A DNA stretch of 64,000 nucleotides, taken from assembly GCA_041653515.1 (NCBI GenBank), contig JBAZFG010000002.1:125632-189631 (forward strand), read 5' to 3'. Source of the DNA: Candidatus Nanoarchaeia archaeon (GTDB lineage Archaea > Nanobdellota > Nanobdellia > WJKC01). Position 1 is the first letter of the stretch, and every line of letters begins with the position of its first letter. The position numbers and the translations under genes were made by a program. The notes below the pieces were generated by a model, which saw only the letters and a list, made by a program, of their open reading frames with translations, was not told the DNA's origin and did no database searches. Below, piece by piece: positions 7,288 through 63,077 of this stretch.

Positions 7288-8443
7288 TTACCTTTTTTGT
7301 GTTATAAATGTTTTCTTAACGTTGTTCAGCATGTCAGTTAACTGCAGCATTACTTTTTTGGTTGAGTATTGCTTTGCGTAAGCTTTTAGTCCTGGTCGCG
7401 GTCGCTCTTTTAGTAATTTGATTATTGCGTTAGCCCAATTAATTGCTTTATAAGGCTCGACTAACTCACCGTTTTCCTTGTTTACTAACTCGTTAAGCGG
7501 CCTGACGTTGCTGGCCAGCACTGGCTTGCCAAGAGCCCATGACTCAAGCAATACTAGTCCAAACCCTTCAACAGTGCTTGGGTTAACAACGAATTTTGAT
7601 TCACTGATTATCTTTAATTTATCAGCATGGCTGACCCTGCCAGTAAACGTAATACTGTTATTAACTCCGAGCCTGCGCGCGAGTGCCATTCACTGCTTCT
7701 TCATTGGACCATCACCAACTATTACGAACTTGGCTTTAGGGTCACGGCCGAGCACTGAAAGCATAGCCCTAATTATTGTGTTAACGTTCTTGTAGAAAAC
7801 GTGCCGGCCAATAAAACAAAACTGATTCTTGAGTCCGGCTCGCAGGTTTTTGTAATCAGCCAAGTCAATCATACAAGGCATGACTTTGATTGGCCTCCTA
7901 ATACCAGCCTTAATTAAATTATCCCTGCTGACACTGCTGATAGTGTGAATTAATGCTGGCCTGAATTTGAGGATGATTTTCTCAAGCAATGGACCCATAA
8001 TTCCGAGGCCTTTGCTGACACCTATCTGCCTGCTCCACTTACTTTAGAACGGGCCACTTGAGTAAAAATCAAAGATGCTCATCAAATGAGAGATTTTAAG
8101 AAAATAAGAAACTAAATGAGCACTGACTGCCGGCGTGTAAGTATTAGAGTGAATGACGTCGGAGTCCTTAGCAATTTTCAGGCCAGCCCTGAATGACTTA
8201 ATAATAAATGAAGCATTATTCAACAAGCTCATGTTAAGGTGGCCTTTGTAATCAATTGGCCTGTCAACCAGGTAAACTTGATGCTGTCAATCTTCTCAAA
8301 AGAAGTAGTGCCCCTTAATTGCTGGGTGATAACATTGACTTCATGCTGCGCTTAACTAACTCGCGCGCGTACTGAAAGAACAAGTACTCGCCACCCCCAT
8401 AGATTGCTGGCGGGTATAAGTGAATGAATTGAGTTATTTTCAT
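7288..8443 (-). pseudogene. Decayed duplicate of the GT4 glycosyltransferase gene at 10659-11789
   Basis: Collinear with the intact paralogue from ATG (8443) to stop (7288), roughly three quarters identical by eye in the C-terminal 95 aa. In-frame TAA at 8044-8046 and TGA at 7690-7692. At least two frameshifts between ~8260 and ~8350. The ORF track splits it into three pieces (7288-7689, 7690-7998, 8044-8232). Confidence 0.85.
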
Positions 8444-10662: not shown

Positions 10663-11789
10663 ATTAAAGTTTTGAATATATTTTCTAGTAGTGGCGTGAC
10701 TTTCTTGGTTGAGTATTGTTTGGCGTATTTTTTTATTCCTTGTTTATTTTCTTTTAGCATCTTGTTGATTTTATTTGCCCAGTCGATTGATTTGTAAGGT
10801 TCGGCCAGGTCGCCGTTTTCTTTGTTGATTAATTCATTCATTGGCCTGACATTGCTGGCTATTACTGGTTTGCCTAATGCCCATGACTCGAGTATTATTA
10901 TGCCAAATCCTTCGACTGTGCTTGGGTTGACTACGAATTTTGATTCATTTATTATCCTTAATTTATGCTCGTGACTAACTCGGCCAGTGAATAATACGCT
11001 GCTGCTAACCCCTAATCGTCTGGCTAGTGCCATCCATTGTTTTTTCATTGGTCCGTCACCAACTATTATGAATTTGGTTTTCGGGTTCTTGCCAAGCACT
11101 GATGGCATTGCTTTGATGATTGTGTCAACGTTCTTGTAAAAGACATGCCTACCAACATAACAAAATTGGTTCTTCTCTTCAGTTCTTGGCGTCTTGTAAT
11201 CAGTTAAGTCTATCATGCAGGGCACAACTCTTATTGGTCGCTTAACGCCTGCTTTTATCAAGTCCTCTTTACTGGCGTTGCTGATAGTGTGAATCATTGC
11301 TGGCCTGATTTTTAGTATTATTTTTTCCATTAATGGCCCGATTATACTGAGCCCTTTGCTGACTCCGCGCTGACCACTCCAATTATTCCAGAAACTGCCT
11401 TGAGAGTAAACATCAAAGATGCTGATAACATGGGGTATTTTTAAGCAATAGGATACTGCGTGACCACTTAATGCTGGCGCGTAAGTGTTGGAGTGAATGA
11501 TATCAGAATCCTTAGCTATCTTTAATCCTTTTTTGAATGATTTAATGATGAATGAAGCATTGTTCATTAAACTCATATTCAAGTGGCCTTTGTAATCAAT
11601 TGGTTTGCCGACCCGATGGATTTTAACCCCGTTTAATTCTTCATAGCATTTAGTGCCTTTAAGTCGCTGAGTAATAACATTAACTTCATGGCCTCGTTTG
11701 GCTAATTCTTTAGCGTACTGGAAGAACAAGTACTCGCCGCCGCCGTAGATTGCTGGCGGGTATAATTGACAGAACTGGGTTATTTTCAT
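10659..11789 (-). CDS. GT4 (GT-B fold) glycosyltransferase, intact copy of the 7288-8443 pseudogene
   Basis: C-terminal EGFGIIILESWALGKPVIAS (E-x7-E region). N-terminal YPPAIYGGGEY, typical of GT4. Confidence 0.8.
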   Translation of the reverse strand: MKITQFCQLYPPAIYGGGEYLFFQYAKELAKRGHEVNVITQRLKGTKCYEELNGVKIHRVGKPIDYKGHLNMSLMNNASFIIKSFKKGLKIAKDSDIIHSNTYAPALSGHAVSYCLKIPHVISIFDVYSQGSFWNNWSGQRGVSKGLSIIGPLMEKIILKIRPAMIHTISNASKEDLIKAGVKRPIRVVPCMIDLTDYKTPRTEEKNQFCYVGRHVFYKNVDTIIKAMPSVLGKNPKTKFIIVGDGPMKKQWMALARRLGVSSSVLFTGRVSHEHKLRIINESKFVVNPSTVEGFGIIILESWALGKPVIASNVRPMNELINKENGDLAEPYKSIDWANKINKMLKENKQGIKKYAKQYSTKKVTPLLENIFKTLI

Positions 11790-40177: not shown

Positions 40178-40339
40178 TGCCCCCGCAGTTTGGAATAAAC
40201 TTTTTTCAATAAGCAGGGGGATCAGGAAATGCCTAAAACTGAGGGGGATGTGCCCCCGCGGTTTGGAATAAACTTTTTTCAATAAGCAGGGGGATCAGGA
40301 AATGCCTAAAACTGAGGGGGATGTGCCCCCGCGGTTTGG
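40178..40339 (-). repeat. Tandem repeat, 73-bp unit x 2.2, each unit carrying one GC-hairpin element of the dispersed family
   Basis: Units start at 40178, 40251 and 40324 (tgcccccgc[a/g]gtttgg...) and are nearly identical. The array fills the aglB-to-GPT intergenic region, starting right after the aglB stop. Confidence 0.9.
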
Positions 40340-42958
40340 TTACCAGGCAGGACTGCCGTTATCAACCCATGGCATCATTGCAGTATAATTAATGTGATAA
40401 ATATTAATGTTGGTTGGGTCGTATTGTGATATTAATCCTCTTATGTTTAGTGAGTTACTTGAGTAGACTAATTCAAAACCAGGTATTGTTTCGTTCAATA
40501 AGTATAAGTGAGTCATGAAACGATCATTTAAGTCTGATGGGATGTGAATTAAGCCTCCTTCAATGAATTCAATACAAGAGTCAATGCCGTTAGTCTCATT
40601 AAAGTAAGTGCAGCCATTACCATAATCACAAACGCAATTGTATGGGTGAAGCGTGTTACTGCCCGTAGCTAAGTTATAAACTACTGCTTGTGGCTGACCA
40701 AAAGATTGGTCTTCAGCCATTGGTATTAAAACGTTTACTATGTAACTCTCGCCTTTAGGGAATAATACACCATCAATGATTGTGTCAGCGCCAACATAAC
40801 CTGGTGAGGCTAAGTAATTGAAAACTAGTAGTGTGCTGAATTGTTCAGGATTATACAAGTTATTATCCACTTGCTGGCTGTAAGTGTAAGGTGCGTAATA
40901 ACCTGGCCTGCCACCAATATTAGCCATCTGAACATATTTTAGTATATCATCATCCATGACTAATAAATAATTAGGCCTATTGCCTGTTTCATTATTCTTG
41001 AAGTAATCAAGTGAGTCATAAACCTCTGTCATGTTAAAGCCGCTAAACATTTGGCCGCCAATAACTTCATCCCATACTACTTGGAAGTTACCCCCATCAA
41101 CTGTTGTTGCCCGCTCGCCCATGGTTTGAACCCAGTAACCATAATCCCACCAATGAGTGAATACAGCGTTAGTGTCAGTGTTATTCCTAACCCAACTCAT
41201 TGATTCGCCCCAATCATTAGTGAAGCTTGGAATCATTGTTGAAGCATCTTCAACAATAACATAGTAACTCCATATTACTAATAGTATTGCGACTGCGTAA
41301 ATAGCTGTTGAGTAAACTTTATCACTTGTTATTTTGCTGATTAAATTATTTATCCGCTCAATAGCGTAAGCAGCTAATAACACGAATATTGGGGTGCTAG
41401 CAAAGACAATTCTTATTGCGCCCCTAGTTGCAATAACACTTAAAGCAAACCATAAGATGATTATTAGTTTACTTGGCGTTAACTCACCCCACTTACTGCT
41501 CTTATGGAATTTAATGTAAAATAATATTACTGTTAAAGCCAATAATGGCAGTGTTAGTAAGTAAGTGTTCTCAAAGAATAAATTAATTGCTTCATAACCG
41601 TTTAAGTTAACGAATTTGCTAAACATGAAGAATAAGATGAACACAGTAAACATTATCACTACTGATGTGGCTTTCTTGCCAAACTTACCTAATACTTCTT
41701 GAACTAATAATGCTCCACCAATAACAAATAATGGCACAAACCATTGAAGCCTATGCCACCAGTCAACCCCGTTAGGGTCATAGAACCATGGGGCTTGGTT
41801 TTCAGTAACTGAGACGCAGAAAGCACAAGTGCCAAAAGGGTTTAGTATTGTATCAAGAGCGCCTTGTAGTTTGGCGCCAACATCAAATAATCCAGTTAAT
41901 TGCATTACTGGCAGACCAACCATTATTAATACTGCCATCATTATTACGAAATAAAAATTATCAGGCCACTTCTTGTTCTTGATTAAGTTACTGATGAATA
42001 AATCATAAACAATTTTTAATCCAAGCACTAACGCTGTGATAGTTGGTATTAAGAACATATCAATCATGATTAAACCAAAACCATTATAGCGCAGGGTCAT
42101 TGTAGCGTTCATTAATATTATTGGGATGAACCACGCAAAGTAAGTGATTACGTTTTTATTGCTTAATTTACCCATTAAAGCAAGGAATAGGAATGCTAAG
42201 CCAATGCTGAAGAATAAGAAGTTAGCCCCACCCCAAGTCAGGCTTGATAAGCCAGCTAATACGCCTGATATTAACCCGTAAATTAATGCTTGTTTAGTCT
42301 TATTTGCCCTAATTGATTTGACTAATGCATAAATCATGCTAAACCAAAAGACTGTTGCAAGCGCTTCCTTATCACTAAACCCTGCCATGGTCCTGAATAA
42401 ATATGATGGGATTAATGATAAAAACGCTGTGGCAATTAACGCTGTTTTCTTGTTGAATATTTCTTTAGTCATTAAGAAAAAGAATATCATGCTTATTACA
42501 AACGCAACAACTGGGTAAATCATTGAATAACTCATTAGTTCGCCGCCAAATAATGGGTGAAATATTGTGTATAATCCTGCAACAAAGTAAGACACTAATT
42601 GGTGCTCCTTGAAAGTGCTAAAACCTTCTGGAAAATAACGAAATGAATCCATTTCAGGCAGGGTGCCCTGCTCCACTAGTGTTTCAGTGTAGCGGTAAAA
42701 AACATACGGGTCAAGACCAAGCAATAAACCATTGTATAATGGTATGCTTAGCATCCTAACCCAAGCCCCAACTAATATAATACTAATTAATGCTGCGTAT
42801 AATATTATCTTCTTATTTTCTTTGAGGAATTTTACTGCTTCGCCAAAATTAAGTTCATCCTCATCAGTGGTTGCTGGTTTTTTCTCTTTCTTATCACTGC
42901 TAAACCAGCCTTTAATCTTTCGCCCTATCTCCCCGAAATCAATTTCTTCATCACTCAA
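40340..42958 (-). CDS. aglB: Archaeal oligosaccharyltransferase AglB (STT3 family), long form
   Basis: Canonical HWWDYGYWVQ motif, first-loop GLDPYVFYRY, about 13 TM segments and a large C-terminal domain. Confidence 0.9.
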   Translation of the reverse strand: MSDEEIDFGEIGRKIKGWFSSDKKEKKPATTDEDELNFGEAVKFLKENKKIILYAALISIILVGAWVRMLSIPLYNGLLLGLDPYVFYRYTETLVEQGTLPEMDSFRYFPEGFSTFKEHQLVSYFVAGLYTIFHPLFGGELMSYSMIYPVVAFVISMIFFFLMTKEIFNKKTALIATAFLSLIPSYLFRTMAGFSDKEALATVFWFSMIYALVKSIRANKTKQALIYGLISGVLAGLSSLTWGGANFLFFSIGLAFLFLALMGKLSNKNVITYFAWFIPIILMNATMTLRYNGFGLIMIDMFLIPTITALVLGLKIVYDLFISNLIKNKKWPDNFYFVIMMAVLIMVGLPVMQLTGLFDVGAKLQGALDTILNPFGTCAFCVSVTENQAPWFYDPNGVDWWHRLQWFVPLFVIGGALLVQEVLGKFGKKATSVVIMFTVFILFFMFSKFVNLNGYEAINLFFENTYLLTLPLLALTVILFYIKFHKSSKWGELTPSKLIIILWFALSVIATRGAIRIVFASTPIFVLLAAYAIERINNLISKITSDKVYSTAIYAVAILLVIWSYYVIVEDASTMIPSFTNDWGESMSWVRNNTDTNAVFTHWWDYGYWVQTMGERATTVDGGNFQVVWDEVIGGQMFSGFNMTEVYDSLDYFKNNETGNRPNYLLVMDDDILKYVQMANIGGRPGYYAPYTYSQQVDNNLYNPEQFSTLLVFNYLASPGYVGADTIIDGVLFPKGESYIVNVLIPMAEDQSFGQPQAVVYNLATGSNTLHPYNCVCDYGNGCTYFNETNGIDSCIEFIEGGLIHIPSDLNDRFMTHLYLLNETIPGFELVYSSNSLNIRGLISQYDPTNINIYHINYTAMMPWVDNGSPAW

Positions 42959-42965
42959 TTTAACA

Positions 42966-43784
42966 TCATACTCCTAATGAAATGTAAACCTCTAATAATC
43001 CCCCGATTATTAATACAATGCTTGCAAGCACTATTAAATCAATGGAATCAAGTAATACCTCTTTAAATTTATTACTCTTAGGGTCATGCCTTATTACTGC
43101 TGCACTAATAATGCCTCCTGCAATGCCTGCGAGGAAGTAAGCAATTAATTCTGGCAGACCATGAACTAAGTAACGACCAAACCCTAGTGGCACTGCCTGA
43201 AAATAAGAAGACCAATTACTAATATTGGTTTTAATTGCGTTGCCAATAGCGACGCCGAGCACGCTTGAGTTCCACGTGATAATAAATATTGCGCCCGCCC
43301 CGTATAATAAGCTAAATATTAAGCAGAAGAGTAATACTTTGAAGTTATTGGCTAATATTATTTTTAATAAATCTGTTTGCACTGCATTGCCTTGAATGGC
43401 TGATGAGTTAATGCTTCTGATAGTGTTTATTTGCTCTGAGAATATTTTTGCGTTAAGGCTGTCAGGCATTATGACATACCATGTGGTGAATGTTATTAAT
43501 AATCCCATTGACATGAAGAATATTACGCCGAGCACATCTTTATGATTGCCAATTAAGGGGTATTGTTTTTTGGTGAAATCCTCTGATTCCTCTCGTTTTA
43601 GCACGTTAACTAGTAATGGCACGCCAGCCATTGTTGTAAGAAAAACCATACTTAATGACGGGTCTGATGGGAATAACCACATGCTGACTACTAAGCCAAG
43701 GCTCGCGTATATCACGCCTAATATTGTCATTTTCCAAGGCTTGGCTCTAACTTCTTTACTGCTTAATATTGACTCAAAAACCAT
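42966..43784 (-). CDS. Integral membrane protein, SpoIIM/DUF95-like
   Basis: Six or so TM segments. GLPELIAYFLAGIAGG resembles SpoIIM-family blocks. Assigned from memory only. Confidence 0.4.
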   Translation of the reverse strand: MVFESILSSKEVRAKPWKMTILGVIYASLGLVVSMWLFPSDPSLSMVFLTTMAGVPLLVNVLKREESEDFTKKQYPLIGNHKDVLGVIFFMSMGLLITFTTWYVIMPDSLNAKIFSEQINTIRSINSSAIQGNAVQTDLLKIILANNFKVLLFCLIFSLLYGAGAIFIITWNSSVLGVAIGNAIKTNISNWSSYFQAVPLGFGRYLVHGLPELIAYFLAGIAGGIISAAVIRHDPKSNKFKEVLLDSIDLIVLASIVLIIGGLLEVYISLGV

Positions 43785-44838
43785 TAATCACCTCTAATTT
43801 TCGGCTCCTGCCTTGGAATCCTTCGCCAGTATCAGTTGCTTTGATTAGTCCTTGTTTTCTTAATCGGTTAATGTAGCGCCTAAAACTCCTAATGCTTAAT
43901 TCGCCATGTATCTCGCGGTAATTCTTGTAAGCATCGCCGCTAATAATATTAGGGTTCTCTTTTATGATGTTAATTATTTTTTCTTCATGGTCGCTTAATT
44001 CCTGAGGTAAGTTAATAGTTATTGTCTTAATTGCTTCTTCAACGTGCTTGACTGTTATTTTCCTGCTAGCATCCCGCTCAGCCCTGCGTCCAGCTTCTAA
44101 TAATAAGTTGATTGCTTTCCTAACATCTGTGCCTGAATTAATACTTACTTCATGGACTACTCCTTCGCTTACAACACTTGGGTGGAACGCTTGTTTGGCC
44201 CTGCGTTCAATAATGTTTTTCATCTCGCGCGTAGTGTATGGCTTGAACTCCATGTTATTAAGGTTTAATCGCGACATTAATCGTGGTTCAATATAATTCT
44301 TGTACTTAGGGTTGTTAGTGACCATTAAGATGCATACCCGTTCTAAGTTTAGTAATGAGTATATTATGTCAAGGTCTTTTATTTTATCCACTTCATCAAG
44401 GCAGACTACTGCTCCTTTTTCCCTTAGTTTTCTCATCGCGTTATTAAGTATTTCTTCGGTCGGCACACCTTTAGGGGGATAGAGCATGCCTAATCGTCGC
44501 GCTATCTCTAAAGCTATTGTGTGAGTGGTCTGGCTTTCCCAGCAATTAATGAATACTGGTACAATATCGCTGGTCTCTTTTAATTCGTTAAAAATATATT
44601 TGATGCTCGCTGTCTTGCCAAGCCCAGGCATGCCGTGGATGAATACATTACTCCCTAAGCGATTTTGTAATAATGGTTTGATGAAACTAGCTATTTCTTT
44701 AATCTCATTGTCCCGTTCAGGCATTTCTTCTGGTTGGAATTTATAATCGAGAATAGTTTCATCCTTGAACAAAGTCTCGTTGTCCATCAGGATATCTTTG
44801 AATAAGCCCCCCATAATAGTAAGGGACACGCTAATCAT
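43774..44838 (-). CDS. cdc6: Orc1/Cdc6 replication initiator
   Basis: Walker A GMPGLGKT, Walker B VVCLDEVD and a C-terminal winged-helix region (RSFRRYINRLRKQGLI). Confidence 0.9.
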   Translation of the reverse strand: MISVSLTIMGGLFKDILMDNETLFKDETILDYKFQPEEMPERDNEIKEIASFIKPLLQNRLGSNVFIHGMPGLGKTASIKYIFNELKETSDIVPVFINCWESQTTHTIALEIARRLGMLYPPKGVPTEEILNNAMRKLREKGAVVCLDEVDKIKDLDIIYSLLNLERVCILMVTNNPKYKNYIEPRLMSRLNLNNMEFKPYTTREMKNIIERRAKQAFHPSVVSEGVVHEVSINSGTDVRKAINLLLEAGRRAERDASRKITVKHVEEAIKTITINLPQELSDHEEKIINIIKENPNIISGDAYKNYREIHGELSIRSFRRYINRLRKQGLIKATDTGEGFQGRSRKLEVINGF

Positions 44839-53556: not shown

Positions 53557-54126
53557 TTGATGAAAAAAGTTGCTTTGGTTGACTGGGGTAAGGGTGTTAC
53601 TGGTTTAGATGGGTTGCCTGCGTTCCTGGCTGATATTTTTCCAGTTAAAGCTTGCGATGACGTTCTTAAAGTCAGGCAATTATTAACAAAGCCTTTTAAT
53701 CACTGGCTTAAATCGCTTGACTCTAAGATTTGCCGTGAGTACAGCGACGTTATTGGTGTGGCGTTAATGCCTTACGTACCTAGCACAAAGGCGTTGTATG
53801 GCAATAATTTTGATAACGCTTCATTAATCCTTAATATTGCTGTTAATTCACATAATTATAATGGTTCGTTAATCTCAATTGACGTTAATACTATTGGGCC
53901 TGACCGCGCCAAAACGATTAGTATTCATGAGTTATTTGAGGTCTTTCATGGCCGGCATGAGACTCATGATGGCCGGGGCCAGCCTTGCGCTAATAATGGT
54001 GACTTGAGTAAATTAAGTTTTTGCTGCAGTCTTGAGAACACGCTTAATTATATTGATTCATTAAGCCCTTTCTTGTGCGGTCATTGTGATTATAAAGTTA
54101 AAAAGTCACGATTAATTGATTATTAA
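53557..54126 (+). CDS. Divergent archaemetzincin-like putative Zn protein (tentative)
   Basis: HELFEVFHGRHETH...C...CC...CGHC resembles the archaemetzincin HExxHxxGxxH + Cys4 layout, but the second His position is Glu. Confidence 0.3.
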   Translation: MMKKVALVDWGKGVTGLDGLPAFLADIFPVKACDDVLKVRQLLTKPFNHWLKSLDSKICREYSDVIGVALMPYVPSTKALYGNNFDNASLILNIAVNSHNYNGSLISIDVNTIGPDRAKTISIHELFEVFHGRHETHDGRGQPCANNGDLSKLSFCCSLENTLNYIDSLSPFLCGHCDYKVKKSRLIDY

Positions 54127-55597
54127 TCACTGCGTATAATTCTTTAGCATTATTATGTAATTGTTTTATTATTGCTGATACGTAATCAATACTGCTTATT
54201 ACTTCTTTTTTGTTTATTTCAAGTACTCGCATTTCCTCTGCGTTCCTGAAACCAAATCCCCTTCCTTCGCGGAATATTGGTGCAATGAATACTTCGTTTT
54301 CATTAAGGCCTGGGAGTACTTTGTTTGTTATTCCAATTGTTGTTCCAAGGTATTTTCTTGCAAATTCTTCGTTAATTAATACTGATGTTGTTTGATTAAT
54401 TCTCTCGCTTATTTCATTTAGGCTTTTGTTTCTAAGAACCATTTCACTTTTGAATTTTTGAGGCAGGCCAATCACAAAAGTACCTTTTGTTGCGATTGGT
54501 ATTTTTTCAATTCCAGTGCATTTATTATTCTTGAAAAATAGTCGTAGTAATCCCTTGCTGCTATTGAATGCAAGGACGTTTTTATCTGACCTTTTTTTTA
54601 TGTAATTGGGTTTACTGCTTAAGTAATCCTTGAATAATTCATTTATTTTTTTATCTGTCATTGGGTAAAAATTTATTCTTTCATATTCATCCGGATTAAT
54701 GCCACTTTCATTAATAGTTATTCTTTTATAATCACTTATGATTATTTTTTTTGCTTTCATTATTTCTTTGATGAATTCTACTTTCAATAAGTTCTCATCT
54801 AATTTGTTTGTGTAAGCTTCAAGCCATGCCGGCCTGAAGTCAATACTTAATGGTTTGCTGTCAGTGACTTGTATTACTATGTCCTGGCTTTTGTAATTGA
54901 ACATGAACAAGTTTTTCCATTCGCGCCAGCCAGTCTTGATTAGTAATTCGCTGATAGATTGGCCTGGGCTGAGTTCGTAAGAATAAGGGTTTATTCGCCT
55001 GACTGTTGCTGGTTTAGTGGTTGATTCTGTCATCACTGTTTTAGTTTCTTGTTTTGGCAGTTTCTGCGGGTATAATCCTACTTGCGCTACTGCCGCGCCC
55101 GCTTCATTATCCTGGTTTAATAATTTGTTAAGCACTAATTTTAGGAAACCATAAGCTTTTGTTTCTGTTATTTTTTCTTTGAATAATTGTTTCACTTCAT
55201 TGTTAATGCCTGTTTTCTTGAATGTGTTTTTTAATTCATTAATAAGTGTTTTTGAGTAATGCTCAAACATGAATTCATTGTAGTATTTGCTGAAGAAAAT
55301 ATTATCCTGGTTTAAGTCCTTAAGTGAGTTAATTGCTTTTAGTGTTTTGAAGTCATTGGTGTTAAAAATCTTCTTGCGTCTCATTGAGTGAAGTATTTTT
55401 TCTTCAACAATTTTTTGCTTAGCAGGGTTCATAACAGTGTTGGCTATCCTGATAAGCCATTTGAATAAGTTGTAATTAATTGAGTTGTTTGAAAGGTTTT
55501 TTAATTGCTCGGCTGACGCATTAATGATGGTGATTAATTCTTCATTACTTAAATTAAGACTGCTCTTCCTGCTGTTAAACCTGAAGTTAACTATCAT
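54098..55597 (-). CDS. Hypothetical protein (499 aa, AT-rich)
   Basis: Long intact ORF. No recognisable domain. Confidence 0.5.
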   Translation of the reverse strand: MIVNFRFNSRKSSLNLSNEELITIINASAEQLKNLSNNSINYNLFKWLIRIANTVMNPAKQKIVEEKILHSMRRKKIFNTNDFKTLKAINSLKDLNQDNIFFSKYYNEFMFEHYSKTLINELKNTFKKTGINNEVKQLFKEKITETKAYGFLKLVLNKLLNQDNEAGAAVAQVGLYPQKLPKQETKTVMTESTTKPATVRRINPYSYELSPGQSISELLIKTGWREWKNLFMFNYKSQDIVIQVTDSKPLSIDFRPAWLEAYTNKLDENLLKVEFIKEIMKAKKIIISDYKRITINESGINPDEYERINFYPMTDKKINELFKDYLSSKPNYIKKRSDKNVLAFNSSKGLLRLFFKNNKCTGIEKIPIATKGTFVIGLPQKFKSEMVLRNKSLNEISERINQTTSVLINEEFARKYLGTTIGITNKVLPGLNENEVFIAPIFREGRGFGFRNAEEMRVLEINKKEVISSIDYVSAIIKQLHNNAKELYAVINNQLIVTF

Positions 55598-56823: not shown

Positions 56824-57300
56824 TTAAATAATATATTTCTCAAACAAGTTGCCTGGTCCTTTACTTGTTTTATAAAGCGTGTGTTTTTTTAGCCAATTAA
56901 TTAAGTTCATAGTTTTCTTATTATTAGTTAAGTGCAAGCCCCATGTTGATGGGTCACAAATGTATTCTTCTTCTTGATAAGTAAATTTATTCCAAACGTG
57001 ACTTAATGGTTCATTAAAGAACTCATTTGTAAGTAAGTAATTTCTGCCTTCAATGATTTTATTGTAAGCTTTACCCATTATCATAATTGTTTTAAATTGT
57101 TTATTCTCTGATAAGACGTTGTTTAGGAATTGTGCGAAGTGATTGCATAAACCTCCTTTATTTATGAATTCATTAGTGGTGGTTTCCCAATTATTTGGCG
57201 CGCAATAAGGGATATTAGCAATCGTTTCTTCAAGAAATAATTCTAATTCCTTTATGTTATTTATTTTTTTATGATAAGTGTTGTCAATTATATCATTCAT
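56824..57300 (-). CDS. Small transglutaminase-like (Cys-His-Asp) fold protein (tentative)
   Basis: GGLCNHFAQFLNNVL ... SHVWNKF ... ICDPS matches the order and spacing of the C/H/D triad of transglutaminase-like peptidases. Confidence 0.4.
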   Translation of the reverse strand: MNDIIDNTYHKKINNIKELELFLEETIANIPYCAPNNWETTTNEFINKGGLCNHFAQFLNNVLSENKQFKTIMIMGKAYNKIIEGRNYLLTNEFFNEPLSHVWNKFTYQEEEYICDPSTWGLHLTNNKKTMNLINWLKKHTLYKTSKGPGNLFEKYII

Positions 57301-57336
57301 GTTAAATTAACTTTTTTTTAGTATTTTTAAAGTTTT

Positions 57337-57488
57337 TTAGAAATCACTGAGTTTTTTCTGCTTAGTCCCTAACCGCAGGGAGGGGTGACCCCTCCCTTCA
57401 GTTTTAGGGTAATCCTGATTCCCACCCCCCTACGATTGTAATTATGCCAGAGACATGTTAGAAATCACTGAGTTTTTTCTGCTTAGTC
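57337..57488 (+). repeat. GC-hairpin element copy A (57368-57457), bracketed by 31-bp direct repeats (57337-57367 and 57458-57488)
   Basis: ttagaaatcactgagttttttctgcttagtc occurs twice, identically. The right copy is the last 31 nt (stop codon included) of nucS. The core aaccgcagggaggggtgacccctcccttcagttttagggtaatcctgattccc lies at 57371-57423. Confidence 0.85.
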
Positions 57489-58210
57489 TTATCAACTATG
57501 TTCCTGTTTGGTGGTTCTACTTGGCAGAACTTAAAGCTCCAGTCATGGAGCATTTGTTCAGCGTTCTTAGTGATGCCTGGCGCTGCGATGTAACCAATGA
57601 CTTTGTCAATTCCTTTAGCTGCCTTGATTCTCTCAACGTAGCGCCTTAGTTGTTGGACCGCGCTAAGCCCGGCAGTCACTCGCTTACACTCAATAATTAT
57701 TAATGCTCCTTCACCATCATGGCCCATCACGTCAATAAAACCATATTTTGTTTGTTCTTCAAGGCTGACTGGCCTAAAGTCAATGCTAATAATATGTGGG
57801 TGCTCATAAATCATGCGCGCCATGTCAGCTTCACTGCCCATAATCATTACTTCTTCATCATCGCTTAGTTGGCCTGAGATTAGTAAGTCAATGCTGGTTA
57901 TTTTAATGACCATTTGTTCTCTTGGGTTGATTGATTCAGCAGTGATGAATAATGAGTCGCCAGCTTCAACCCTGATGCTCGCGCCTTCTTTTATCCAGTT
58001 AACTGGGTTCCTGCCTGTTGGTTTGTGAACTAATAGTGTTTTGTCTGTTTTGATGGTGACTGCCCTGCCGCCCCGCTCGAGCTTTGAGTAAGCCCTGCCT
58101 TCATACTTAACCTCGCACTCGCAGTAAAGTGTGATTAACTCGTTTCGCTTGAGTGCTTGGTCTAATACGTTCTTGGTTGTATCAAAATCAGGTTTAACAT
58201 AATTGCTCAT
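57458..58210 (-). CDS. nucS: NucS/EndoMS mismatch-specific endonuclease
   Basis: C-terminal RecB-like nuclease block IDVMGHDGEGALIIIECKR...AVQQLRRYV; 250 aa. Confidence 0.85.
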   Translation of the reverse strand: MSNYVKPDFDTTKNVLDQALKRNELITLYCECEVKYEGRAYSKLERGGRAVTIKTDKTLLVHKPTGRNPVNWIKEGASIRVEAGDSLFITAESINPREQMVIKITSIDLLISGQLSDDEEVMIMGSEADMARMIYEHPHIISIDFRPVSLEEQTKYGFIDVMGHDGEGALIIIECKRVTAGLSAVQQLRRYVERIKAAKGIDKVIGYIAAPGITKNAEQMLHDWSFKFCQVEPPNRNIVDKTKQKKLSDF

Positions 58211-62791: not shown

Positions 62792-62935
62792 GGGCCCGTA
62801 GCGCAGTTTGGATAGCGCGACAGGCTTCTACACTCGACGCTTCGCGTCTCGTTCCGTCCTTCGGACGGCCGCTCGCTTAAAACGAGCGGGGGTGAGGATA
62901 CCTGTAGGTCGTGGGTTCAAATCCCTCCGGGCTCG
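62792..62935 (+). tRNA. tRNA-Arg (anticodon UCU) with a 69-nt intron at the canonical 37/38 position
   Basis: Acceptor GGGCCCG/CGGGCTC, D arm GCGC-agtttggata-GCGC, anticodon stem ACAGG/CCTGT with loop ct-TCT-a, T arm GTGGG-ttcaaat-CCCTC. Exon 1 is 62792-62830, the intron 62831-62899 and exon 2 62900-62935. No encoded CCA. Confidence 0.85.
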
Positions 62936-63077
62936 CACGAAAACCGCAGGGAGGGGAGACCCCTCCCTTCAGTTCATCTCCTGATTCCCACCTCCTTGAC
63001 AATTTGCGCCAGGGGTGCTGAAATATTAATCTGCACGAAGTTTTGGATGATTAGTCCAATTTACTCCGGGCTCACAC
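62925..63077 (+). repeat. GC-hairpin element copy B, bracketed by the tRNA 3' end and a 13/14-nt copy of it
   Basis: ctccgggctcgcac (62925-62938) is repeated as ctccgggctcacac (63064-63077). The core aaccgcagggaggggagacccctcccttcagttcatctcctgattccc lies at 62942-62989. Confidence 0.8.

Follow-up and report, generated by a model that had tools for sequence, protein, structure and literature searches.

MITEs (miniature inverted-repeat transposable elements) carry terminal inverted repeats and make a short target duplication of fixed length (2-10 bp), which is set by the transposase of a parent insertion sequence (IS). Known transposases and casposases produce duplications of fixed length; in the Cas1 family these span 14-15 bp for casposons, which have terminal inverted repeats and favour tRNA and gene 3' ends as targets, or one CRISPR repeat. 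Mobile elements are believed to be few in DPANN archaea, whose genomes are very small. In this study, we analysed a 64,000-nt stretch of DNA (the window) from a Candidatus Nanoarchaeia archaeon (contig JBAZFG010000002.1) and focused on a 31-bp direct repeat that brackets a 90-nt element at the 3' end of nucS, the gene of the EndoMS/NucS endonuclease. We consider it likely that the repeat is a target-site duplication from the insertion of a tiny, non-coding and non-autonomous mobile element.

This element resembles MITEs in its size (57-242 nt across the family described below), lack of coding capacity, copy number, intergenic location and target duplications. Unlike MITEs, it has no terminal inverted repeats, only one defined end, duplications of 12-60 bp and no apparent parent IS. 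As a GC-rich hairpin repeat just downstream of genes in an AT-rich genome, it also recalls the repetitive extragenic palindromic sequences and bacterial interspersed mosaic elements (REP/BIME) and the Correia elements. Those repeats, in contrast, have no duplication or one of 2 bp, are tied to RAYT or IS transposases and do not possess the third-strand mirror symmetry found here.

The insertion at the nucS 3' end

The sequence TTAGAAATCACTGAGTTTTTTCTGCTTAGTC is present twice on the plus strand, at 57337-57367 and 57458-57488, with zero mismatches between the two copies (31/31). The repeat is exactly 31 nt long, since the bases adjoining the two copies differ on either side, and no third copy was found in the 64-kb window when up to 3 mismatches were allowed (0 expected from 100 shuffles). 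The features of the locus are as follows; the element is read in what we call the F orientation, and its opposite strand is called R.

57337..57367, no strand assigned: left copy of the probable 31-bp target duplication, an exact 31/31 match to 57458-57488
57368..57457, plus strand: element copy A, 90 nt, F orientation, found by pattern and hidden Markov model (HMM) matches and missing from the related locus L116
57377..57397, plus strand: GC-rich core hairpin of copy A, from folding and family covariation
57420..57428, plus strand: third, pyrimidine-rich strand of copy A, TCCCACCCC, from three-way covariation in 113 copies
57458..57488, no strand assigned: right copy of the probable duplication, the genuine 3' end of nucS
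57458..58210, minus strand: nucS, 250 aa, intact, with Pfam NucS_N and NucS_C

The right copy, on the minus strand, encodes ..T K Q K K L S D F and the stop codon. This C-terminal tail is PIP-box-like (QxxLxxF) and presumably a PCNA-binding motif, and a similar tail is kept by NucS relatives (162 homologues at E<=1e-30). The left copy is a left-over nucS terminus, detached from the gene and lying 36 nt upstream of the ATG of a minus-strand gene (56824..57300). The nucS gene is unharmed because the duplicated segment runs to the gene end, so that one copy stays attached. The 90 nt between the copies are GC-rich, against 37% GC for the window. The first-pass annotation had described the two perfect 31-mers, the second as the last 31 nt of nucS including its stop codon, with a non-coding hairpin element between them that is antisense to nucS, while two further copies, B and C, run in the sense direction of the gene before them. 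Exact searching, the open reading frame (ORF) at 57458..58210, the lack of any ORF in the 90 nt and the core matches given below bore out this description; the gene upstream of B is AglB/STT3, and that upstream of C is tRNA-Arg.

An uninterrupted site, which the annotation had proposed to look for in a related genome, was found. The closest NucS relative (P0001, 90% identical) is encoded on the JGI contig Ga0226659_10060888, our locus L116. The gene order there is the same, the downstream gene being a homologue of the 158-aa ORF of the window (56824..57300). In L116, the nucS stop codon is followed by an AT-rich spacer and the downstream gene, with a single copy of the 31-mer region and no element. 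Alignment of the window with L116 leaves a single gap of 121 nt, equal to the element and one 31-mer. Three further NucS relatives of 74-76% identity carry no element or extra repeat after nucS. A metagenome scan with the back-translated C-terminus for more alleles of the site gave 95 loci, among which there was one distant nucS only, without the element. Because L116 has one 31-mer region and no element, the window carries an insertion with a 31-bp target duplication. The alignment places it exactly behind the stop codon of nucS, and the 31/31 identity of the repeats suggests that the event is recent.

Two other readings of the repeat were rejected. One takes the 31-mer as part of the element, with copy C transducing a nucS-like end; the 31-mer and the copy C tail agree at 20/31 positions, a likeness that is not significant, as it was matched by 168/1000 and 266/500 shuffles. 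The other, the variable and template repeats (VR/TR) of a diversity-generating retroelement (DGR), does not suit a perfect repeat of only 31 nt, and nucS is no DGR-type target.

The element family and its flanking repeats

A core pattern was drawn from the window copies: AACCGCRGGG, the hairpin, CYTCAGTT, 4-9 variable nt and TCCTGATYCCC. In the window it matches just the four copies that share this core, with 0 expected, namely copy A at 57368-57428 (+), two tandem units of copy B at 40206-40340 (-) and copy C at 62941-62997 (+); the HMM match for copy A has E=3.5e-15. The copies outside the nucS site are:

40178..40339, minus strand: element copies B, two 73-nt units and a 16-nt partial third, from core matches
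62939..63063, plus strand: element copy C, 125 nt, F orientation, from a core match, with tRNA-Arg(TCT) adjacent

The core of copy A reads CCGCAGGG... in the F orientation. Its layout is a leader, cctaa (57368-57372), the conserved core (57373-57422) and a variable tail (57423-57457), and it ceases to resemble the other copies about 5 nt to the left of CCGC and, on the right, about 10-20 nt past the core. The R strand of copy A is sense with nucS. Copy C begins 4 nt past the 3' end of an intron-containing tRNA-Arg(TCT) gene (62792-62935), and its two flanks, CTCCGGGCTCGCAC at 62925-62938 and CTCCGGGCTCACAC at 63064-63077, represent a duplicated tRNA 3' end that has decayed; 125 nt on, the right flank matches the tRNA 3' end at 13/14 positions (19/25 when extended). 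The tRNA gene itself (plus strand, 69-nt intron) was missed by default ARAGORN and found by Rfam (49.7 bits) and by intron-allowing ARAGORN. The copy B array directly adjoins the AglB/STT3 stop codon (gene at 40340..42958, minus strand), where it begins. Its units are 99% identical and the partial third unit stops in the hairpin loop (2.2 units). A Cdc6/Orc1 gene (43774-44838, minus strand) lies about 3.5 kb from copy B, and a replication origin may be near.

The core pattern was also run against a representative genome of each species. At least 114 loci matched at the ~50-nt core, all of them in archaeal metagenome-assembled genomes (MAGs), mostly of DPANN type. The 80 matches listed come from about 50 assemblies, and the labels among them include Micrarchaeota, Aenigmatarchaeota, Altiarchaeales, Woesearchaeota/Nanoarchaeota and Iainarchaeum. 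Several genomes have 4 to 6 or more contigs bearing a copy. The element belongs to a multi-copy family present in many, mostly DPANN-type, archaeal MAGs. Full-text literature searching, whose coverage is incomplete, found no prior description of such a family, and it is apparently new to the literature.

Direct repeats were sought by comparing the 80 nt left of each core with the 400 nt to its right. Repeats of 12-60 nt (median ~22; 85-100% identity) flank 39 copies and enclose elements of 57-242 nt, and the shortest elements with perfect repeats measure 57-70 nt. The distance from the end of the left repeat to CCGC is 0-13 nt, and 5 nt is the commonest value. Such repeats were present at 36/97 real cores and, by the same procedure, at 4/600 control anchors shifted by 1-3 kb. 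The repeats thus vary in length, unlike the short fixed duplications of MITEs, and all 39 differ in sequence. Insertions are found at tRNA 3' ends in both orientations, at the ends of protein genes and in intergenic DNA. Four loci from Bilamarchaeaceae and related MAGs (L049, L063, L083 and L108) have as their duplicated target a sequence of 23-35 nt (..CTCAGGGTTTTGGGAACCTTTTGCCC), of which each locus contains several occurrences separated by spacers of about 30 nt; this sequence may be another repeat family, or an array that the element entered.

The two ends of the element are unlike. On the left, the similarity between copies stops sharply, 2-7 nt from CCGC, with leaders of the type (C)CGAA, CTGAA or CCAAA, or similar (CCTAA in copy A). 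On the right, similarity usually ends 5-25 nt past the core, and within subfamilies a common tail, with additional hairpins, can reach ~170 nt. Terminal inverted repeats are absent, as the left ends read (C)CGAACCGC and the right ends are unrelated and variable; complementary ends were seen in L064 only. At the junctions, the target overlaps the 5-nt leader by 1-5 nt in 13/38 cases (by at least 3 nt in 7, against ~0.6 expected, in a hand count), and extra filler bases are present in 12/38. Neither boundary of the duplicated segment showed a preference for any base.

tRNA genes are strongly over-represented near the element, with one within 400 nt of 25/121 copies. In eight cases the element begins 4-9 nt after a tRNA 3' end; in about 12 the tRNA lies on the opposite strand just past the tail, and the duplication spans the T-loop to the tRNA end. 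On the opposite strand the sharp end reads GCGGTTCGG and resembles the universal T-loop GGTTCGA, so that the T-loop junctions are microhomologies. Three loci carry the element within a tRNA gene: L062 (380-540) and L069 (3613-3832) in the T-loop (tRNA-Lys and tRNA-Arg), and L064 (5311-5497) at the canonical anticodon-loop intron position of tRNA-Ser. These tRNAs would need splicing to work. The ends of the L064 insert pair (CGGAACC/GGUUCCG), and the two T-loop copies of L069, GUUCGAAC and GUUCGGAU, can pair with each other, which would loop out the element.

Tandem arrays were seen for copy B and at L002 (2248-2340), L026 and L051. L002 holds 1.4 units, and its partial unit stops at the hairpin loop as in copy B. 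The arrays could stem from polymerase stalling, from rolling-circle copying of a small circle or from unequal exchange. Copying errors or a later unequal exchange would account for them, and they do not decide between mechanisms.

No mobile-element gene was found to accompany the family. ORF clustering within 3 kb of 121 copies showed no enriched gene family beyond housekeeping genes; the largest cluster was that of class-I aminoacyl-tRNA synthetases (8 loci), and no cluster was mobile-element-like. A parent IS sharing the element ends was not seen in the 121 loci of ~8 kb or in viral contigs, and matching repeats up to 7 kb from the copies were of chance size only. On the ORF clusters and the distant-repeat search, a linked autonomous element was rejected. 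The core had no match in 2.9 million viral contigs, and a viral or plasmid origin was rejected on this ground. In Rfam 15, the sole gathering-score match in the window is the tRNA; the element is unmatched, and an E-value search of 57250-57550 returned only a chance-level match (13.5 bits, E=1.4). Judged by eye, the core contains no hammerhead or other ribozyme, C/D-box RNA or tRNA-like motif.

The window is a region of glycosylation and housekeeping genes. When ten of its ORFs, unassigned or neighbouring, were scanned with Pfam, AglB/STT3, Cdc6 and an epimerase were recovered, and no integrase, transposase or reverse transcriptase. A 499-aa ORF (54098-55597, minus strand) has no Pfam match, and genes for the 158-aa protein and an amidohydrolase lie between it and the nucS site. 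Within the glycosyltransferase cluster, two stretches of ~1.1 kb (7347-8443 and 10694-11789) are 73-82% identical and 3.35 kb apart, which looks like an old tandem gene duplication.

The core hairpin, its third strand and the folding strand

The hairpin of copy A consists of AGGGAGGGG, a TGA loop and CCCCTCCCT. Hairpin covariation was assessed in an alignment of 50 sequences; in alignment A2, the two hairpin strands and the third strand occupy columns 13-21, 30-38 and 64-72. Compensatory changes occur in 6/9 hairpin pairs, and the covariation score of 0.250, against 0.120 for shuffled alignments, was reached by 0/500 shuffles and is best in register. The sequence of the core (CCGC, TCAGTT and TCCTGAT) is kept across phyla.

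A third strand, C-rich and starting at the Y of TCCTGATY, covaries with the hairpin in parallel register. It is the mirror of the hairpin 3' strand and is complementary to the purine strand in parallel orientation. Only three base triples are seen at the stem foot in the 113 copies: A,T,T (90 copies), G,C,C (14) and A,C,C (9). The parallel rule is obeyed at 87% of positions, compared with 72.6 +/- 0.9% when third strands are swapped, and the antiparallel rule at 64.5%; copy A obeys the parallel rule at 8/9 positions, and the rule is also true of the apical C/G positions. Four informative parallel pairs score 0.497 against 0.263 for shuffled alignments (0/500), again best in register. Templated copying cannot make mirror repeats, and the mirror repeat therefore points to selection for Hoogsteen-type pairing. 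These patterns suggest that the core forms an intramolecular triplex, in which the triples would be T.A-T and C+.G-C on the F strand and A.A-T and G.G-C on the R strand. At neutral pH, consecutive C+.G-C triples on the F strand would be weak, and the R strand would use G.G-C and A.A-T instead. A second small stem in the linker (UCAGG/CCUGA) showed no covariation and was dropped.

Known triplexes (H-DNA, and the MALAT1/PAN and transposon-RNA elements for nuclear expression, ENE) likewise combine a purine, a pyrimidine and a mirrored pyrimidine strand, with covarying triples of A,T,T or G,C,C as here. They differ from our element in that its linker is a conserved module of 24-30 nt and its triplex is read from sequence covariation.

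As to which strand folds, the R strand lengthens the hairpin by a helix AACUG/CGGUU with a U.G pair, where the F strand has a C.A mismatch. This extended helix ends 3-5 nt from the element terminus (3 nt in copy A). Predicted fold energies for copies A, C and B are -33.4/-41.9/-20.3 kcal/mol on R and -25.9/-36.5/-14.9 kcal/mol on F. There are 11 internal A.C mismatches on F, each corresponding to a G.U pair on R, against 4 of G.T. The comparison modestly favours the R strand as the form that would fold.

A proposed insertion mechanism and alternative explanations

If the repeat is a target-site duplication, as we think likely, several features of the locus follow without site-specific recombination. 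The locus has the look of a reconstituted gene because the duplication is long. Insertions at gene and tRNA 3' ends survive because a complete terminus remains on the gene wherever the element enters its final few tens of bases, which makes them neutral. As for the route of insertion, we tentatively favour the primed copying of a structured single strand at a staggered break. The copied form would most likely be an R-strand transcript, whose 3' end would be the long GC hairpin ending ...CUGCGGUUCGG, with an expected RNA terminus of ...GCGGUUCGG. A 3'-OH of the target might anneal by a few bases to this hairpin terminus, and the match between the R-strand terminus and the tRNA T-loop GGTTCGA might produce the bias to tRNA genes. 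Copying would then proceed toward the variable 5' side of the element, where variable extension or truncation would set the end. Cleavage of the second strand at a distance of 12-60 nt would follow, with the target duplicated by gap repair. A host enzyme or an unlinked reverse transcriptase might serve as polymerase, and the mirror-symmetric third strand may form a triplex that caps or marks the element end. A functional tie between triplex and mobility is a conjecture.

Such a route would bring the family close to the short interspersed elements (SINEs). The element shares with SINEs its short, non-coding, dispersed and multi-copy nature, target duplications of variable length, junction microhomology, mobilisation in trans and one conserved structured end opposite a variably truncated one, although the sharp end would be an RNA 3' end only if the strand evidence holds. 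It differs from them in having no A-rich or simple-repeat tail and no internal promoter, and no partner long interspersed element (LINE) or reverse transcriptase was identified within 3 kb of the copies. To our knowledge, nothing SINE-like is known in Archaea or Bacteria. A bolder version, which we regard as unlikely, would make these elements the first archaeal SINE-like retroposons, with a triplex-clamped RNA that is reverse-transcribed into staggered breaks, primed by microhomology with tRNA T-loops among other sites, and with tRNA-internal copies that persist by being spliced out and seed new non-canonical tRNA introns in DPANN archaea.

Several observations weigh against this explanation. 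There is no A-rich or other simple 3' tail as in most SINEs, and no reverse transcriptase or other candidate enzyme was found within 3 kb of the 121 copies. The copied single strand may be RNA or DNA. The evidence for the R strand from wobble pairs is modest and comes mostly from one base pair, and single-copy folding z-scores are weak (-0.2 to -2.5). Two thirds of the copies have no detectable flanking repeat, which could reflect their age, although a second insertion mode is also possible. One filled and empty pair was obtained, that of the nucS site itself. Finally, the tandem arrays (B, L002, L026 and L051), some of which end in the loop, are not simply predicted.

The main rivals of primed copying are a DNA transposon and template switching. 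It is conceivable, though we consider it improbable, that the elements are MITE-like DNA transposons, moved by an unlinked, trans-acting transposase or Cas1-like integrase that recognises the core at one end and makes wide staggered cuts. Small, non-coding, multi-copy elements with target duplications suit this idea; a 31-bp duplication is within the size range of the CRISPR repeat duplication by Cas1-Cas2, and the preference for tRNA and gene 3' ends is shared with casposons. However, the elements have one defined end only and no terminal inverted repeats, their duplications of 12-60 nt contrast with the fixed length made by known transposases and casposases, and their junctions show microhomology and filler bases. 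Neither a transposase nor a cas gene, cas1 included, is enriched near the 121 copies.

Template switching during replication, by fork stalling or by microhomology-mediated break-induced replication (FoSTeS/MMBIR), would dispense with a dedicated enzyme, and we give it a rather small chance. A nascent strand would leave the nucS end, copy an element at another genomic site, return upstream of its exit point and copy the 31 nt again, and the hairpin/triplex core, by stalling polymerases, would make the element a recurrent donor. The variable duplication lengths, the junction microhomology and filler bases, the strong structure-forming potential with its mirror symmetry, and the arrays with partial units ending at the hairpin loop (copy B, L002) all agree with this process. 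It leaves unexplained why one end is fixed ~5 nt outside the core across phyla, why the core (CCGC, TCAGTT, TCCTGAT) is conserved across phyla as if recognised, and, beyond microhomology, why tRNA T-loops are preferred.

A less probable account starts from an RNA-processing element related to the archaeal introns with bulge-helix-bulge (BHB) motifs. Cuts by the splicing endonuclease and ligation by RtcB would release a possibly circular RNA that is copied back to DNA, and the nucS copy would be a by-product. The three loci with the element inside tRNA genes that need splicing, the pairing ends of L064 and the arrays of 2.2 (copy B) and 1.4 (L002) units, which suit small-circle copying, speak for it. 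DPANN splicing endonucleases are also known to accept relaxed substrates (PMC3239211). On the other hand, no BHB motif was shown at the junctions: minimum free energy (MFE) folds join the junctions of tRNA-internal copies and display no clear BHB, and the nucS copy lies outside RNA genes, as do most copies. Insertion by ligation predicts no target duplications, and a reverse transcription step is still needed.

The first-pass annotation had read the locus as the footprint of site-specific integration that leaves nucS intact. Its first part, an insertion of foreign DNA, agrees with the empty site in L116; its second part, attL/attR recombination, did not hold. An integrase-borne element that recombined with the nucS 3' end and decayed to 90 bp now seems very improbable to us. 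A gene terminus duplicated around foreign DNA is indeed the classic footprint of integrases, with the gene left intact and tRNA genes favoured, and copy C duplicates a tRNA 3' end, a common att site. Yet the same core lies between unrelated repeats at dozens of unlike sites, and a fixed att core is ruled out because the flanking repeats all differ in sequence and length. They start or end at the element's own leader, with microhomology and no fixed crossover core, and minimal copies of 57-70 nt with perfect repeats are hence not decayed. No gene, integrases included, is enriched within 3 kb of these 57-242-nt inserts, and the larger element carrying the 31-mer or the core beside an integrase, which the annotation had suggested, is present neither in the window nor in viral contigs. 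The integration remnant is largely refuted.

As for the assembly, 31 is also the k-mer size of the Logan assemblies, and the Logan contig that carries this nucS (L001) stops one base before the end of the 31-mer (L001 2970-3003). A repeated 31-mer breaks a k=31 graph, so this break fits a repeat that is present in the reads and is no pointer to an artefact. We regard it as scarcely credible that the contig wrongly incorporates a 121-nt loop from a k=31 de Bruijn graph, given that a graph branch at the 31-mer needs reads joining the element to it on both sides, that the other two window copies have different flanks, and that the same architecture recurs in dozens of assemblies, including k=141 MEGAHIT and SPAdes, with repeats of 12-60 nt whose varied length rules the artefact out.

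Insertion of a small mobile element with duplication of its target is the explanation that we retain. Among Cas1 systems, casposons and CRISPR arrays share with it target duplications tens of bases long and, for casposons, tRNA and gene 3' ends as targets, but not the variable duplication length, the absence of terminal inverted repeats or the lack of a linked cas1. The long and variable duplications, the single defined end and the microhomology do not fit the prokaryotic transposon classes known to us, and they resemble eukaryotic retroposition. If this likeness is true, target-primed copying would extend to Archaea, which bears on the origin of such mechanisms.

These results indicate that a gene-less element of 57-242 nt has spread through many DPANN lineages. 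The perfect 31/31 duplication at nucS and the empty site in a close relative suggest that the family is apparently still active. Such elements account for duplicated gene and tRNA termini without integrases, and they may cause tRNA gene disruptions or introns. The repeats that they make fragment short-k assemblies, as in the Logan contig of this locus. The core is a rare natural case of three-way, triplex-type covariation that is open to biophysical testing. The family probably consists of non-autonomous mobile elements of the DPANN archaea, and a retroposon-like nature is possible, although unproven.

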